A stretch of DNA of 64,000 bases, taken from positions 577,823 through 641,822 of the forward strand of contig NZ_JBCNLP010000001.1 of the NCBI RefSeq assembly GCF_039595395.1, in the 5' to 3' direction. Below, piece by piece: positions 52,892 through 60,446 of the stretch (positions are counted from its first letter, which is position 1; each line of letters starts with the position of its first letter). The translations under genes and the position numbers were made by a program. Under the pieces are notes generated by a model that did not search any database, had not been told where the DNA came from, and was given only the letters and a program-made list of their open reading frames with translations. The DNA is from Novosphingobium sp. Its GTDB lineage: Bacteria > Pseudomonadota > Alphaproteobacteria > Sphingomonadales > Sphingomonadaceae.

Positions 52892-53449
52892 TTAACCTTC
52901 TGCGCCTTCCTTTACCTTGGCGGCAAACCCCTTGCGCAGCTTGGCCAGCTTGGGCGGGATCACGGCCATGCAATAGGGGTTCCGCTGGCCTTCGCCGTCC
53001 CAGTAGTCCTGGTGGTAGTCCTCGGCGGCGTACCACTCGGCGGGGCCTTCGATGGTGGTCACGATGGGCAGCTTGTGGTCTTCCTGCGAACGCGTGATCG
53101 CGGCCGAAGCCTCCGCGCGCTGCTCGTCCGACAGCGGGAAGATCGCCGAACGGTACTGCGTGCCGATGTCGCCGCCCTGGCGGTTGAGCTGCGTCGGGTC
53201 GTGGGTGGCCATGAAGACATCCAGCAGGTCGCCATAGGACAGCACGCTGGGGTCATAGGTGATGCGGATGGCTTCGGCGTGGCCGGTGGCGCCGCTGCAC
53301 ACCTGCTTGTAGGTGGGGTTGGGCACGGAGCCGCCGATGTAGCCGCTTTCCACATTTTCCACCCCGGCGCACATGCGGAACACGGCCTCGGTGCACCAGA
53401 AGCAGCCGCCGGCGACGATGGCTTGGGGAAGGGTGGCAGTGTCGGCCAT
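52892..53449 (-). CDS. msrA: Peptide-methionine (S)-S-oxide reductase
   Basis: It has the GCFWC active-site motif, and the ATG at 53449 gives MADTATLPQAIVAGGCFWCTEAVF. Confidence 0.93.
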   Translation of the reverse strand: MADTATLPQAIVAGGCFWCTEAVFRMCAGVENVESGYIGGSVPNPTYKQVCSGATGHAEAIRITYDPSVLSYGDLLDVFMATHDPTQLNRQGGDIGTQYRSAIFPLSDEQRAEASAAITRSQEDHKLPIVTTIEGPAEWYAAEDYHQDYWDGEGQRNPYCMAVIPPKLAKLRKGFAAKVKEGAEG

Positions 53450-53572
53450 GGGGGGAATCTCCTTTGGGGGGGCGGCCTCCAAGTGGCGATGATGAGACGG
53501 TTTCGCAAGAGGGCGTTAAGTCCGGGCGGCGCGTGATAGACTTTGTCACAGAGCAGGCATAGGAGACGGGCC

Positions 53573-55013: not shown

Positions 55014-55089
55014 GGGCCCTTAGCTCAGTCGGTAGAGCAACTGACTTTTAATCAGTAGGTCGCTGGTTCGAATCCAGCAGGGCTCACCA
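55014..55089 (+). tRNA. tRNA-Lys (anticodon UUU)
   Basis: The cloverleaf was folded by hand. Acceptor stem GGGCCCT/AGGGCTC with one G-U pair, anticodon stem ACTGA/TCAGT with loop CTTTTAA, T arm GCTGG-TTCGAAT-CCAGC, and an encoded CCA. Confidence 0.9.
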
Positions 55090-55096
55090 TGGATCA

Positions 55097-55133
55097 CAAG
55101 GGCTTGGCGGCTGTGCCAAGCCCTTTGTTTTTT
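55097..55133 (+). terminator. Rho-independent terminator after tRNA-Lys
   Basis: CAAGGGCTTGGC-ggctgt-GCCAAGCCCTTTG followed by TTTTTT. Confidence 0.85.
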
Positions 55134-55152
55134 AGCAGTCTGTCAGACTTTA

Positions 55153-56667
55153 TCACGCCGCTGCCTTGGCGCTCCGTGGCGTTCGGGTCTTGTTGCGCAC
55201 GCGGCGCATCGGCAGGCTGCGGGTGTGGCGCTTGAAATAGACGATCTCCAGCAAGGTCGGCCAGATCTCCAGCGAGGCGCGGATCAGCCCCACCTCATCA
55301 TCGACGATGCGGCTGACATTCTGCTGGAAGAAATCCGGCTCGAAATCATAGAAAGTGCGCGACAGGCCCGCCGCGAACTGGCCCAGCGCCATCCGCCGGT
55401 CCTCATGGCGCGCATGGTCCATGGCCGCCAGCACGCGGGCGTGCAGCGAGCGGGCATCGTCCAAGATCTGCTGGCTGTCCTCCAGCGAGACCGCGCCGTC
55501 ATAATCGAAGGCGATGCCCCATTCATCGGTCTTGCGCAGGGTCGAGCGGAACTTGCGCTTCAAAAGCCCGCAGACCGCCTCGTTGAAGACCTCGGCCGCC
55601 AGTGGATTGCGCATATAGGCGTTCTTGATGTGGGTCTGCGCCGAATCCACATGCGCCGCCACAAAGCCCGACTGCTGGATCCACAGGCGATAGATGTAAT
55701 CCTCGAAACGCAGCCTTGTGGGAAAGAACGGCGGCAGGCCGGTGGTGTTGTCATAGCCCGCCACGCCGCAATCCATCCGCCAGTTCACATTGGTGAGGCA
55801 GGGGCGGAAGTTCACCATCACATAGGTGTCATTCAGCCTTTCGGCGTCGATCTCTTCGGGATCGTCGAGGAACATGTCGACGTAATCCACCGCATCGATG
55901 TCATTGGTGCCGGTGCGGAAGGTCTGGGCCATCTTGATGATGCCGCCGCGCGGCAGCGTGCCGGGCTGCAGCGCCAGAGCATTGTCGCGGCAGAAGCCCA
56001 GCGAGGTGTTGCTCTCCAGATCCATCGCGGAATCGAGCAGCAGCTCGCCCTGATCGTAATTGGCCGGAGCCTCCGCCACGGTGCGGCCCAGCACATCGCG
56101 GAAGGAGGCGAGGATGTCATAGGATTTGCGGCTGTGGCCATTGGCGCCGCGCGGGATCAGCTTGCCCCGGCTGATCTCGTTCTCGCCCAGCGCCTCGGGG
56201 CTGTCCTCGATCAGCGCATAGGGGCGCATATCGTCGTCGGCGCTGACCATCAGGTCGCCCAGCGTGTACATCAGCGTGAAATTGCGGTTGCCGCCATAGC
56301 TGGGGCGGAACAGGTTGCGCACCAGCATATCCAGCTTGCGGTCTTTCAACCGGCGGCAGATGTAGCCGAGAAACTGCTCCTTCTCCGCAGGGCCGACATA
56401 CCACACCTCATTCTGGGTGCGGGTGGCTTCCAGCGTGTCGTAGTATTTCTGATGGTTGGCGATCGAGGAATCGTCGAAAACGGTGATCGGAGCGCTCTGG
56501 CCGCAGCGGGAGAAGTTCTCGTCATAGGCTTCGACGGTCTCGCCCACGTCGCGCAGGCGATAGGTGGGGATCACGAAATGCATCTGGGGTGTGGTCACGG
56601 AGACAAGTCCATCCGATGAGCGCGCCGGAACGGCGCCGGGGACGCCGTATCTAGGTCGGCGCGGCAT
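55153..56667 (-). CDS. Soluble GT-A-like protein resembling the RGP/GT75 (reversibly glycosylated polypeptide / UDP-arabinopyranose mutase) family
   Basis: The ATG at 56667 is preceded by GGAG. Motifs in RGP order are HFVIPTYRLRD, MVSADDDMRP, RMDCGVAGY and RLRFEDYIYRLWIQ. No TM segment is present, and there is a ~150-aa C-terminal extension. Confidence 0.5.
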   Translation of the reverse strand: MPRRPRYGVPGAVPARSSDGLVSVTTPQMHFVIPTYRLRDVGETVEAYDENFSRCGQSAPITVFDDSSIANHQKYYDTLEATRTQNEVWYVGPAEKEQFLGYICRRLKDRKLDMLVRNLFRPSYGGNRNFTLMYTLGDLMVSADDDMRPYALIEDSPEALGENEISRGKLIPRGANGHSRKSYDILASFRDVLGRTVAEAPANYDQGELLLDSAMDLESNTSLGFCRDNALALQPGTLPRGGIIKMAQTFRTGTNDIDAVDYVDMFLDDPEEIDAERLNDTYVMVNFRPCLTNVNWRMDCGVAGYDNTTGLPPFFPTRLRFEDYIYRLWIQQSGFVAAHVDSAQTHIKNAYMRNPLAAEVFNEAVCGLLKRKFRSTLRKTDEWGIAFDYDGAVSLEDSQQILDDARSLHARVLAAMDHARHEDRRMALGQFAAGLSRTFYDFEPDFFQQNVSRIVDDEVGLIRASLEIWPTLLEIVYFKRHTRSLPMRRVRNKTRTPRSAKAAA

Positions 56668-56873
56668 AGCGTCTCCAGCCGACAAAAGGCGGCTTTCCGT
56701 TGTATTTGCGTAGGGAGCGTGGCGAGGGATCAAAAATATATAAAAATTATATATCTTTTCCCATTCCCTCATCTGGAGCTCAAATGCCGGGCGCGCCTAA
56801 TGGAGCGGGGCCCCGGAACGGCTGAATGCCTCTGCGAACAGGCAGGCGGTTCCCAGGCCCCATGAGGACTTCC

Positions 56874-58698: not shown

Positions 58699-59211
58699 TC
58701 AGCCCCGGCGGCCGGTTTCGAAGAGGAACCAGCGGCGGCCCTCGGCCTCATCCAGCCAGTTCTCGATCAGGCTGGCGGTGACCACGTCGCGATGCTCCTC
58801 GCACAGTTCGTGAAGGGCGCGCAGACGGGTGGCCAGATCGCCATTGTCGTCGCGCAGCTCGGCCAGCATGTCCTGCGGCTCGACGTAATCGGCGTCATTG
58901 TCCAGCACGCGGCTCAGGCGGGCGATCTGGCCGATCGAGCGCAGGGTGGTGCCGCCCAGCTTGCGGGCACGCTCGGCGATGGGGTCGGTCATGGCGAAGA
59001 TTTCATCGGCCTGACGGTCCAGCAGCAGGTGGTATTCGGTGAAATGCGGGCCCGAGACATGCCAGTGGAAGTTCTTGGTCTTGAGATAGAGCGCGAAGAC
59101 ATCGGCCAGCAGCACGGTCAGCGCGGCGGAAAGATCGCGGGTGGCGTCCTCACCCAGGCCCGAGGGCGTGGCGAGGGGGGCAATGCGCTTGGCTTGGGCG
59201 GTGATCGACAT
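58699..59211 (-). CDS. dps: DNA starvation/stationary-phase protection protein Dps
   Basis: LYLKTKNFHWHVSGPHFTEYHLLLD...ERARKLGG carries the ferroxidase-centre motifs. Confidence 0.93.
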   Translation of the reverse strand: MSITAQAKRIAPLATPSGLGEDATRDLSAALTVLLADVFALYLKTKNFHWHVSGPHFTEYHLLLDRQADEIFAMTDPIAERARKLGGTTLRSIGQIARLSRVLDNDADYVEPQDMLAELRDDNGDLATRLRALHELCEEHRDVVTASLIENWLDEAEGRRWFLFETGRRG

Positions 59212-59305
59212 GAGGCTGGTTCCTTGGGTGAGGTGAGGAGGGCAGTGTGGCGAGAATCCCCGCCGTATTCTTGGATGAAACAGATGGATTTCAGGCCAGT
59301 GACGT

Positions 59306-59689
59306 TCAGGCCAGCGACGTCGTGATGGCGATGCCCGATTTCAGCGTCAGCGTGACCGGCGTGCGCTCGGCGACATCGGCGAGGCGCGCGGCCTGGTCGG
59401 CGCTCAGGCCCACGGGGTGCAGCACGCGGCGGATCTGGCGCTGCTCGCCCGCGCCGGTCAGGCTCAGCTCGATATCGAGGCTTTCGAGCGGCCAGCCCTT
59501 GCGATCGGCATACATCCGCAGGGTGATCGCGGTGCAGGCAGCCAGGCTGGAGAGCAGCAGATCATAGGGGGCAAAGCCCGCACCCTTGCCGCCCAGCGCT
59601 TCGGGCTCGTCGGCAACAAGCTGGCGGGGGCCGACCGTGATCTGGGTGGCATAGGGTGTCTGGCCGATGGCGGCATGGGCGCGGGTCAT
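59306..59689 (-). CDS. OsmC-family peroxiredoxin-like protein
   Basis: 127 aa with the OsmC-fold pattern (GFAPYDLLLSSLAACTAITLRMYA). Confidence 0.85.
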   Translation of the reverse strand: MTRAHAAIGQTPYATQITVGPRQLVADEPEALGGKGAGFAPYDLLLSSLAACTAITLRMYADRKGWPLESLDIELSLTGAGEQRQIRRVLHPVGLSADQAARLADVAERTPVTLTLKSGIAITTSLA

Positions 59690-59747
59690 GGCTTGTCTTT
59701 CGGGAAGGTGTGGCCGGCAGGGGGATGCCGGCCACGGGGCAGGGGGA

Positions 59748-60446
59748 TCAGGCGGCGTCGACCAGAACGATCTCGGTGTCTTCCAGCGCGGTGACCTTCA
59801 GCACATCGACATCCTTGATCGCGGCGCCGTCGCGGGTGTTCACCCGCACATCGTCGATCTGAACCGCGCCGATGGCGGGCACCAGATAGCCGCGGCGGTC
59901 CTTGCCCAGCGGATATTCGGCGGTTTCACCGGCCTTCAGCGTGGCGGCCACGATGCGGGCATCGGTGCGGATCGGCAGGGCGTCGTCATCATTGTCATAG
60001 CCGCTGGCCAGCACCACGAACTGACCGGCACGCTCGCCCTTGGGGAAGGGGCGGGCGCCCCAGCTCGGCTTGTCGCCGCGCTGGGTGGGGACGATCCAGA
60101 TCTGGAAGATTTTCGTCGCGACATCTTCCATATTGTATTCGCTGTGGGTGATGCCGGTGCCCGCGCTCATCACCTGGACGTCGCCGGCCTCGGTGCGGCC
60201 CTTGTTGCCCAGATTGTCCTGATGGGTGATCGCGCCCTCGCGGACATAGGTGATGATTTCCATGTCGCGGTGCGGGTGCGGGGGGAAGCCGGTCTGCGGG
60301 GCGATGATGTCATCGTTCCACACGCGCAGGTTGCCCCAGCTGGTGCGGGCCGGATCGTAATAGTCGGCGAAGGAAAAATGGTGCTTGGCGTTGAGCCAGC
60401 CATGGTTGGCACCGCCGAGGCTGTTGAAAGAGCGCAGTTCGATCAT
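59748..60446 (-). CDS. Pirin-family protein (YhhW-like)
   Basis: FPPHPHRDMEIITYVREGAITHQD is the cupin metal-binding motif. 232 aa. Confidence 0.9.
   Translation of the reverse strand: MIELRSFNSLGGANHGWLNAKHHFSFADYYDPARTSWGNLRVWNDDIIAPQTGFPPHPHRDMEIITYVREGAITHQDNLGNKGRTEAGDVQVMSAGTGITHSEYNMEDVATKIFQIWIVPTQRGDKPSWGARPFPKGERAGQFVVLASGYDNDDDALPIRTDARIVAATLKAGETAEYPLGKDRRGYLVPAIGAVQIDDVRVNTRDGAAIKDVDVLKVTALEDTEIVLVDAA

Follow-up and report, generated by a model that had tools for sequence, protein, structure and literature searches.

A GT75-like bacterial protein family associated with genes of the Kdp potassium pump

What does a bacterium use a soluble protein for that resembles the plant RGP proteins of glycosyltransferase family GT75? 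The question is raised by a gene in a stretch of 64,000 nucleotides of Novosphingobium sp. (RefSeq assembly GCF_039595395.1, contig NZ_JBCNLP010000001.1, positions 577,823 to 641,822; hereafter, the window), whose product an original prediction, made from the sequence, had compared with GT75. Gene and protein are called T here. We read T as the representative of a distinct, unnamed family that is a remote sister of GT75 and not a member of it, because the Pfam model of the GT75 family (PF03214) does not match it, because the profile register between the two is weak and because the nucleophilic arginine of GT75 has no clear counterpart in T. Judging from its predicted structure, T is very probably a GT75-like nucleoside diphosphate (NDP)-sugar enzyme, and a functional link to the K+ pump Kdp, or to potassium or osmotic stress, is likely. 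Since GT75 enzymes from bacteria have been described before, a "bacterial GT75" would not be surprising in itself; the novelty lies in a separate, very conserved family that resembles GT75 and is tied to a K+ pump. The original interpretation is partly supported.

The reading frame of T is intact and lies on the minus strand:

55153..56598, minus strand: coding sequence of T, 481 amino acids from GTG 56598, stop codon at 55155-55153
56599..56667, minus strand: 23 codons between ATG 56667 and the GTG, an extension absent from homologues and hit by an indel in N. rosa; most likely untranslated leader

The product of 504 amino acids that had been predicted corresponds to an existing open reading frame (ORF) from ATG 56667, and the longest ORF reaches ATG 56772, but the start is almost certainly GTG 56598, since the N-termini of the homologues match there and since an indel in N. 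rosa NBRC 15208 breaks the frame upstream of it. Homologues are 479 to 484 amino acids long and have an equivalent N-terminus, M/V-T-x-P-x-L-x-F-V-I-P-T; the indel, of 1 nt, lies between the two candidate starts, so that the frame upstream of the GTG is not conserved, and the N. rosa copy has CTG at the position of a further ATG of the window, 56583. All residues are numbered from GTG 56598. As had been predicted, T has no transmembrane segment (the Kyte-Doolittle hydropathy peaks at 1.14 in a 19-residue window).

Homologues of T number more than 2,352 in a large protein collection; they are without Pfam domains throughout, and almost every one bears the label "hypothetical protein", one record of the JGI being labelled "glycosyltransferase involved in cell wall biosynthesis". 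When one genome per species was scanned, T was found to be encoded, at 59% identity or more, in at least 376 species of at least five phyla, among them Sphingomonadaceae, Acetobacteraceae, Dongiaceae, Bryobacteraceae and other Acidobacteriota, Gemmataceae and other Planctomycetota, Chthoniobacterales and other Verrucomicrobiota, and many Nostoc, several of which are lichen cyanobionts. Identity across phyla is 59 to 63%, and about 120 of the 481 columns are invariant in an alignment of 35 sequences. With an exhaustive profile search, 1,016 cluster representatives were found (E ≤ 1e-3), among them relatives of full length with 23 to 41% identity. T itself matched nothing in Pfam, in NCBIfam or among the sequences of the PDB, even at E ≤ 10; a search of the PDB sequences with the single sequence and with two profiles was likewise without a match and retrieved neither MtdL, a bacterial GT75 enzyme, nor the UDP-arabinopyranose mutase (UAM) 8CID.

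Predicted fold and relation to GT75

The structure of T was predicted with AlphaFold2 (AF2). A first model, from 35 close homologues, was discarded: its pLDDT (predicted local distance difference test) was 64.5, the conserved core was left unmodelled and the GT-A matches in Foldseek were non-significant. After 24 relatives with 23 to 41% identity had been added, pLDDT rose to 93.4, with a pTM (predicted template modelling score) of 0.91. The parts of this model are as follows:

56239..56598, minus strand: N-terminal Rossmann-like nucleotide-binding region, residues 1 to 120, with IPTYR at 10 to 14, FDD at 41 to 43 and YGGNRN at 101 to 106 (predicted)
56230..56238, minus strand: DDD, residues 121 to 123, a DXD metal/NDP-sugar motif after beta4 (predicted)
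55630..56229, minus strand: core region, residues 124 to 323, mostly beta, with TGTNDIDA at 229 to 236, RPCLTNVNWR at 265 to 274, RFED at 297 to 300 and H323 (predicted)
55222..55602, minus strand: C-terminal helical region, residues 333 to 459 (predicted)

In the model, the N-terminal region runs in the order strand 6-12, helix 18-31, strand 38-42, helix 46-57, strand 65-68, helix 70-84 and strand 115-120; the last long strand of the core (312-323) ends at H323; and the C-terminal helices (333-352, 372-394, 399-415 and 421-459) are interrupted by a short beta-hairpin at 354-364.

Foldseek placed two chains of MtdL at the top of the PDB (7XPS, E = 4.8e-8, and 7XPR, E = 8.5e-8; probability 1.0); the E-values of all GT2 structures were at least 200-fold higher. 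A second tier, at 1e-5 to 1e-3, was made up of GlfT2 (1e-5 to 4e-4) and K4CP, after which came PcManGT, GtrB, MpgS and glycogenin; structures of MpgS were weak matches, with E values of about 0.01 to 0.03. The predicted fold of T is, thus, of the GT-A type, closest to GT75, with a three-part architecture, and the model indicates a likeness to GT75 that is beyond chance at the level of fold and undetectable by ordinary sequence-family searches. MtdL, the first member of GT75 to be crystallised, is an Mn2+-dependent GDP-sugar pyranose/furanose mutase with the same three-region build; its closest structural neighbours are GlfT2 and the chondroitin synthase K4CP, and its C-terminal region consists of three helices and mediates tetramerisation (PMC9909042).

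With GT75 (MtdL 7XPS, Hyg20 and plant RGP/UAM; PF03214), T shares, in its model, the GT-A fold, with a Rossmann-like region that ends in DDD, a large idiosyncratic core and C-terminal helices, as well as the character of a soluble cytoplasmic protein and, in a register that is weakly supported beyond the DDD, the order of its motifs (IPT[YI]R; DDD; D[IVY]DA; RF[EG]D or RYDD followed by a helix; a His at the end of a strand followed by a basic residue). It differs in having no membership in PF03214, in the unclear position of the autoglycosylated Arg, in a glycine (Gly102) for Asp87 of MtdL and in being about 105 to 125 amino acids longer; its family is also far more conserved, and it stands in a Kdp and compatible-solute context rather than in pathways for antibiotic or cell-wall sugars. 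The surplus length had been described as an extra C-terminal region of about 150 amino acids. T is indeed longer, but the surplus is smaller and is spread over a bigger core and a longer helical region, and it is not an appended domain; MtdL, too, has a C-terminal helical region (PMC9909042). The view of GT75 as an essentially plant and algal family does not hold either, since MtdL and Hyg20 are characterised bacterial enzymes and the entries of the family in CAZy include some from bacteria and archaea (PMC9909042).

Sequence comparison gave a different picture. PF03214 (RGP) matched neither T nor any of the 24 relatives with 23 to 41% identity, even at E ≤ 10. The model is sensitive, because an AtRGP1 sequence, used as a probe only, scored 597 bits with it (this probe also matched PDB 8CID with E = 1e-106). 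The resemblance to GT75 and RGP that had been proposed is, thus, found in fold and, more tentatively, in active-site layout, with MtdL as the best PDB match of a model with a pLDDT of 93, but not in a match to the family model. A clearly better match to another GT-A family was not found: PF00535 (Glycos_transf_2) did not match T and matched three of 25 relatives weakly, with a best E value of 0.002.

For profile comparison, a GT75 alignment was made of AtRGP1, the 8CID chain, an MtdL fragment and 26 bacterial PF03214 proteins. Its N-terminal half is thin (two plant and three partial bacterial sequences), because the search with the MtdL fragment yielded only GT75 fragments of about 200 amino acids. 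Aligned with it by hhalign, the T family gave an E value of 1.3e-3 at a probability of 18.7%, with GNRNF...SADDDM on ACRCF...TIDDDC of RGP1. A core-only comparison seeded TGTNDIDA on xxPD[VY]DA of GT75 (P = 0.0087), and a low-stringency extension pairs residues of T and MtdL with consistent spacing (D233 with D195, T269 with S228, N272 with N230, R297 with R257, D300 with D260, H323 with H287 and K325 with R289). The first hhalign run had instead put G184...D189...D193 on GLWL..D.D of GT75; this was judged less likely than the pairing of TGTNDIDA with xxPDxDA, which is preferred because consistent spacing returns for all downstream conserved residues. A comparison of the family with RGP1 as a single sequence was dismissed, as it gave a 22-column DDD match only, at a probability of 0.6%, and neither the C-terminal halves nor the global mode of hhalign gave a match.

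The original prediction had quoted four motifs as parallels to RGP1, and all four are present in T (HFVIPTYRLRD at residue 7, MVSADDDMRP at 117, RMDCGVAGY at 274 and RLRFEDYIYRLWIQ at 295). The parallel of MVSADDDMRP with IFTIDDDCFV was reproduced by hhalign, and that of RLRFED with GRYDD is in register, but only in the low-stringency extension of a weak hhalign match. The parallel of IPTYR with IPTIR is plausible and was aligned by no tool. RMDCGVAGY, which had been set against PMCGMNLAF, was mis-registered by about eight residues, because PMCGMN of GT75 aligns to RPCLTNVNWR at residues 265 to 274.

The proposed counterparts of the active-site segments of GT75 beyond the DDD are:

55894..55902, minus strand: D233-I-D235, proposed counterpart of PD[VY]DA of GT75 (D195/D197 in MtdL, D182/D184 in RGP1)
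55699..55710, minus strand: R297-F-E-D300, proposed counterpart of R257-F-G-D260 of MtdL
55609..55632, minus strand: H323-I-K325-NAYM-R330, proposed Mn2+-binding His at a strand end, followed by a basic "loop A"

Conservation across the superfamily was scored on 49 sequences, down to 24% identity. G102, D121, D123, G171, R297, R304, H323, R330 and W446 are invariant, and the near-invariant residues include P11, T12, R14, D42, R105, D122, D189, Q225, G230, D233, D235, D283, N284, E299 and D300, with R105, D122, D233, D235, E299 and D300 conserved at 90% or more. The DDD of T was placed on the DDD of RGP1 by hhalign. RFED is followed by a helix, as is RFGD in MtdL, in a register taken from the low-stringency hhalign, and it is in the same extension that H323 pairs with the His of GT75. 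In MtdL, D109-D111 are the DXD equivalent, R90 is the conserved ribose-binding Arg (R105 of T precedes the DDD in the same way), R257 binds the beta-phosphate, D260 is the proposed general base, and His287, Arg289 and His292 are the Mn2+-binding His and the basic loop A; the MtdL residues with a partner in T are, thus, ligands of Mn2+, phosphate and sugar and the proposed general base (PMC9909042).

The nucleophilic, autoglycosylated Arg of GT75 is R159 in MtdL and R158 in RGP1 and lies within [FY]xRG[FY]P (PMC9909042). This motif was not found in T. R167, at the position expected from the spacing in RGP1, is M, L or S in homologues, and R144, R204 and R228 are conserved only inside the Kdp-linked clade and vary across the superfamily. 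R204 is the remaining candidate; it lies 29 residues before D233, a spacing that is 24 in RGP1 and 36 in MtdL. By sequence, then, the nucleophilic Arg that defines GT75 is not clearly conserved in T, and the position of Asp87 of MtdL is taken by the invariant Gly102.

Kdp genes and glycoside enzymes around T

T recurs within or beside kdpFABC(DE) operons in Cyanobacteria, Verrucomicrobiota, Planctomycetota, Acidobacteriota and Alphaproteobacteria. This was seen in a sample of 80 related loci (L numbers), in which ORFs were called over 8 kb on each side and clustered by all-against-all BLASTP. The commonest neighbours of T were KdpB (44 of 80 loci), KdpA (39), KdpC (35), an OmpR-type regulator (21) and KdpD (12), and a short KdpD-N/Usp form was present in eight loci; Pfam matches of representatives confirmed the Kdp neighbours (all but the OmpR-type regulator) as well as Kup and a TrkA_C protein. 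A kdp gene lies 8 kb or less from T in 50 of the 80 loci, distributed as follows:

Verrucomicrobiota: 12 of 13 loci, every one of the 12 adjacent and co-oriented
Nostoc: 18 of 18 loci
Alphaproteobacteria: 10 of 29 loci
Acidobacteriota: 3 of 7 loci
Planctomycetota: 4 of 9 loci
other or unclassified: 3 of 4 loci

For a single-copy operon, chance would place T within 8 kb of it in far fewer than 1% of genomes. At least five gene orders occur in the five phyla, and since the order varies between lineages, selection on the linkage of T and kdp is indicated. They include kdpABC-T-kdpDE; kdpC-T-kdpD (L006, L042, L051, L083 and L087, and on a metagenomic contig); kdpA-T-kdpB with gaps of 5 to 8 nt (L041); kdpB-T (L047 and L054); kdpE-T; kdpABCDE-T in some sphingomonads; and a divergent pair of kdpA and T (L019). 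In Chthoniobacterales and relatives (L062, L064, L067, L075 and L084), T is followed by a truncated KdpD of about 383 amino acids that has the N-terminal KdpD domain and Usp but no kinase core. A truncated KdpD of the KdpD-N/Usp type is known from cyanobacteria. Like such accessory genes of kdpFABCDE (kdpF and the cyanobacterial truncated KdpD), T runs in the same direction as the pump genes, in many cases from within their operon, and does so in several phyla. Eight Nostoc loci (L048, L060, L061, L063, L065, L066, L068 and L074) have two kdpA genes and, from kdpC to T, genes for a small TrkA_C protein, for a 132-amino-acid protein without a Pfam match and for a pentapeptide-repeat protein; in the same eight loci, a gene for a putative porin-like protein of about 590 amino acids follows. 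Furthermore, a gene for a Kup-type K+ transporter (K_trans) lies beside or near T in L025, L026, L032, L051 and L087; Kup is a second K+ uptake system and reinforces the potassium theme.

Promoter DNA may also point to a link to Kdp. TTTATA-N5-TTTAYC is found 95 bp upstream of a stand-alone T in L022 and L023, with a variant of three mismatches in L027, and this box resembles those found at kdp promoters (L009 and L019) as well as the KdpE operator of Escherichia coli, a direct repeat TTTATA-N5-TTTACA. At up to three mismatches, the KdpE box occurs upstream in 8 of 41 loci versus 0.8 expected, a count that AT-rich promoter DNA inflates. L022, L023 and L027 are contigs of metagenome-assembled genomes labelled Dongiaceae, Terriglobia and Terriglobales; their upstream regions, including the KdpE-like box at -95, are near-identical and they carry T copies of the alphaproteobacterial type (74% identity), which suggests mis-binning or very recent transfer.

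In 13 loci (all seven of Acidobacteriota, four of Planctomycetota and two others), T is followed by a GT4 gene and a gene for a hydrolase of 731 amino acids (T-GT4-GDE), with gaps of 0 to 20 nt or overlaps; several of these loci (L044, L052, L059, L071 and L073) have kdp on the same contig stretch. The GT4 protein aligns end to end with the glucosylsucrose synthase (GSS) of Thermosynechococcus, TeGSS (7FG9), at about 50% identity (E = 6e-87), and the hydrolase matches TgAMY of GH176 (7VMA; E = 2e-91). Next to the TeGSS gene, tll1591, lies tll1590 of T. elongatus, which we take to be the sucrose-phosphate synthase (PDB 6KIH, listed as Tll1590 protein). GH176 includes a characterised alpha-1,2-glucosidase that acts on kojibiose and 2-O-glucosyl-trehalose. 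TeGSS is a UDP-Glc:sucrose alpha-1,2-glucosyltransferase, and its products, glucosylsucroses, accumulate in salt-stressed Nostoc (PMC9909042). Compared with tll1590/tll1591 and with Alr1000 of Nostoc, T stands directly upstream of the GSS homologue as an acceptor-making enzyme would, and because it precedes both the GSS homologue and the GH176 gene, it may take the place of that enzyme; sucrose-phosphate synthase itself is a GT-B (GT4) enzyme of unrelated fold. By analogy, we infer that the operon could be a unit for the synthesis and recycling of alpha-1,2-glucosylated stress sugars, with T as the maker of the acceptor.

A further recurrent neighbour, in Sphingomonadaceae and Bryobacteraceae (L001, L008, L012, L037 and L059), is an ABC-transporter ATPase with a C-terminal AAA_assoc_C domain, which in some loci also contains an MgtE_N domain and in some is accompanied by a 582-amino-acid permease and a UCP029691 protein.

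The locus in the window

In the window, T is monocistronic, a stand-alone transcription unit with an AT-rich upstream element of its own. Upstream and on the opposite strand lies a beta-barrel porin gene (BBP2), and downstream T converges with a tRNA gene and its terminator, beyond which an HPPK gene follows:

55014..55089, plus strand: tRNA-Lys(UUU) gene, found by ARAGORN (Rfam tRNA, 77.8 bits), 63 nt from the 3' end of T
55098..55125, plus strand: GC-rich hairpin followed by a T-run, terminating the tRNA gene, between the convergent tRNA and T genes
56599..56713, minus strand: leader of about 115 nt conserved with N. rosa, from blastn and alignment; homology stops at 56713
56737..56755, no strand: AT-rich palindrome ATATATAA-TTT-TTATATAT, a perfect 8-bp inverted repeat

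Compared by blastn with the locus of N. rosa NBRC 15208 (L008), the window matched solely at 55152-56713, with 93.7% nucleotide identity; residues 1 to 481 of T are 98% identical in amino acids. The match, thus, comprises the gene and its 115-nt leader, and both flanks are unrelated. Since gene and leader alone are homologous, T was transferred or exchanged between Novosphingobium lineages as a single-gene unit. The tRNA-Lys(UUU) gene marks the edge of the common segment, and tRNA genes are frequent insertion points. No convincing direct repeat was found flanking T beside the tRNA gene as a mark of integration. A plasmid origin of the region was considered and dropped, as a plasmid collection gave short single-gene matches only, and so was a riboswitch or structured leader upstream of T (no Rfam match; folding-energy z of -0.8).

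The palindrome sits about 140 nt upstream of the GTG in a 35-nt block (56728-56762) between the divergent porin gene and T, the sole strongly AT-rich block of the window, whose GC content is 65%; the block is missing from the N. rosa locus. TTTATA-N5-TTTACA has 10 matches in the window at up to three mismatches, six of which fall within this block. The palindrome is a candidate promoter or operator by its sequence; no sigma-70 consensus promoter was found upstream of T. Within 5 kb on either side of T (52892-53482 and 58699-60446) there are genes for MsrA, Dps, OsmC and pirin, a loose set for oxidative or general stress; a stress setting would be in keeping with these genes, though they do not amount to evidence of it.

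Candidate functions of T

The reading that we favour, and to which we give an even chance, is that T is a soluble cytoplasmic GT-A nucleotide-sugar enzyme, working alongside Kdp, with a stress glycoside as its product; that T itself is the synthase of a small-molecule glycoside, an osmolyte, is a tentative proposal and on balance doubtful. T would bind an NDP-sugar and Mn2+ or Mg2+ via D123 and H323; R297 would contact the beta-phosphate and D300 would serve as the base. Expressed jointly with Kdp at low K+ or raised osmolarity, T would move a sugar onto a small acceptor, yielding the primary compatible solute or its acceptor, and this product would let the cell hold its turgor or balance charge during K+ scavenging. 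In Acidobacteriota and Planctomycetota, the GSS homologue would extend the product of T and the GH176 hydrolase would recycle it. Mannosylglycerate synthase of GT78 and the glucosyl- and mannosyl-3-phosphoglycerate synthases GpgS and MpgS can be compared with T in function only: each is a soluble GT-A enzyme that depends on a metal and builds a small stress glycoside from an NDP-sugar, and no sequence-family relationship of T to them was found.

Several points weigh against this reading. The case for the function is built from a structure model, from sequence and from gene context. The Foldseek matches have TM scores of 0.36 to 0.48 (0.44 to 0.48 for MtdL, normalised to the target) and a large global root mean square deviation, and were judged from the scores alone. 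The sequence link to GT75 is weak: in addition to the missing PF03214 match, hhalign probabilities were 18.7% and 4.6%, and hmmsearch with a hidden Markov model of the T family gave negative scores with GT75 sequences. The residue equivalences after the DDD come from a low-stringency alignment and clash with the first hhalign run at residues 184 to 222. A kdp gene is absent nearby in the window and in 19 of the 29 alphaproteobacterial loci; indeed, kdp, kup, GSS and GH176 genes were not found within the 64 kb, and the AT-rich element resembles the KdpE box weakly, with three mismatches at best. Most of the 80 loci have no further sugar gene, and divergent relatives (25 to 40% identity; P0213, P0128, P0165 and P0263) occur in unrelated contexts, with GT8, peptidase U32 and encapsulin. 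Finally, an osmolyte synthase between kdpA and kdpB is odd, and a factor associated with the pump would fit that position at least equally well.

Such a factor would be a Kdp accessory, either a glycosyltransferase acting on proteins or a regulator that senses a nucleotide sugar and acts on KdpB, KdpD or KdpE, tuning the activity or assembly of the pump. Given the positions of T inside the structural operon (between kdpA and kdpB, after kdpB, or between kdpC and kdpD), this is a serious rival, even though we hold it to be quite unlikely; the very high conservation over the full length, helical domain included, would fit constrained protein-protein contacts, and GT75 enzymes are arginine glycosyltransferases that act on themselves. 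T, however, stands alone in the window and in many Alphaproteobacteria, and in 13 loci it shares a tight operon with the genes of two carbohydrate enzymes, an arrangement that points to the metabolism of small sugars. A true GT75 enzyme had been the original prediction, as a maker of a furanose nucleotide sugar or as a self-glycosylating primer for a surface glycan. T would then be a metal-dependent NDP-pyranose/furanose mutase working via a covalent Arg-sugar, or such a primer, and the furanose would be destined for a glycan or furanoside. The best structural match of T is such a mutase, counterparts can be proposed for D109-D111, D195, S228, R257, D260, H287 and R289 of MtdL, and the distance of R204, conserved in the Kdp-linked clade, from D233 falls between those of RGP1 and MtdL. 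We nevertheless consider this unlikely. Between DDD and D233, the superfamily keeps no arginine constant (R144, R167, R204 and R228 all vary), a residue essential in MtdL, Asp87, is an invariant glycine in T, and PF03214 matches neither T nor its 24 relatives. A mutase also needs a furanosyltransferase as its partner, and none is seen: most loci keep only K+ transport neighbours, and the context is the Kdp pump and a compatible-solute module, with no surface-glycan genes nearby. A pure mutase role is less likely because T is the sole sugar enzyme in most of the operons, where a furanose nucleotide would be without a user.

Two further explanations assign T no part in potassium physiology or no catalysis. 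T might be a plain GT2-like glycosyltransferase that serves a polysaccharide or a lipid and lies near kdp by accident, as the weak Glycos_transf_2 matches of the three divergent relatives, the presence of GlfT2, K4CP, PcManGT and GtrB among the Foldseek matches, the label of the one JGI record and a relative with 27% identity that adjoins a GT8 gene could suggest. This is highly improbable: MtdL leads every GT2 structure by a wide gap in E-value, kdp adjacency in 50 of 80 loci far exceeds the chance level, and T has no transmembrane segment and a conserved neighbourhood without polysaccharide genes. GlfT2 (4FIY) and K4CP (2Z86) of GT2 do have a GT-A Rossmann region and a DXD in common with T, but unlike them T has no multi-domain polymerase architecture. 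Equally remote is a catalytically dead GT-A scaffold with a structural or regulatory role, like the inactive class-2 RGPs. The nucleophilic Arg is not identifiable in T and GT75 does have inactive members, e.g., AtRGP5, but AtRGP5 lacks metal and NDP ligands equivalent to His287 and Arg257, and these are present in T as the invariant H323 and R297, next to an invariant DDD motif.

We return to a nucleotide-sugar enzyme that acts alongside Kdp. That a GT75-derived T is co-transcribed with Kdp, either to make a new or unexpected stress glycoside, by a GT-A route to a primary compatible solute that spares or counterbalances K+, or to glycosylate a Kdp protein and so control the pump, is a real possibility that falls somewhat short of an even chance. 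Kdp is among the best-studied bacterial stress systems, and in the literature searched we found no sugar-nucleotide enzyme linked to it, no glycosyltransferase-fold protein as a part of it and no account of the T family itself. T occurs in hundreds of species that are typical of dilute, acidic or desiccating habitats, from Sphingomonadaceae, Acetobacteraceae, Acidobacteriota, Verrucomicrobiota and Planctomycetota to Nostoc of lichens. It is a well-defined candidate for a step, missing so far, that would join K+ scavenging to the synthesis of organic solutes, and if either reading is true, the K+-limitation response of bacteria from soil, peat and lichens would gain a branch based on sugar nucleotides. 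GT75, which so far stands for the supply of furanose nucleotides in plants and antibiotic producers, would also reach into a second bacterial lineage, one that is much more conserved and perhaps different in its chemistry. Taken together, the data suggest that the T family is an unrecognised, sugar-based part of the response to low potassium or osmotic stress.

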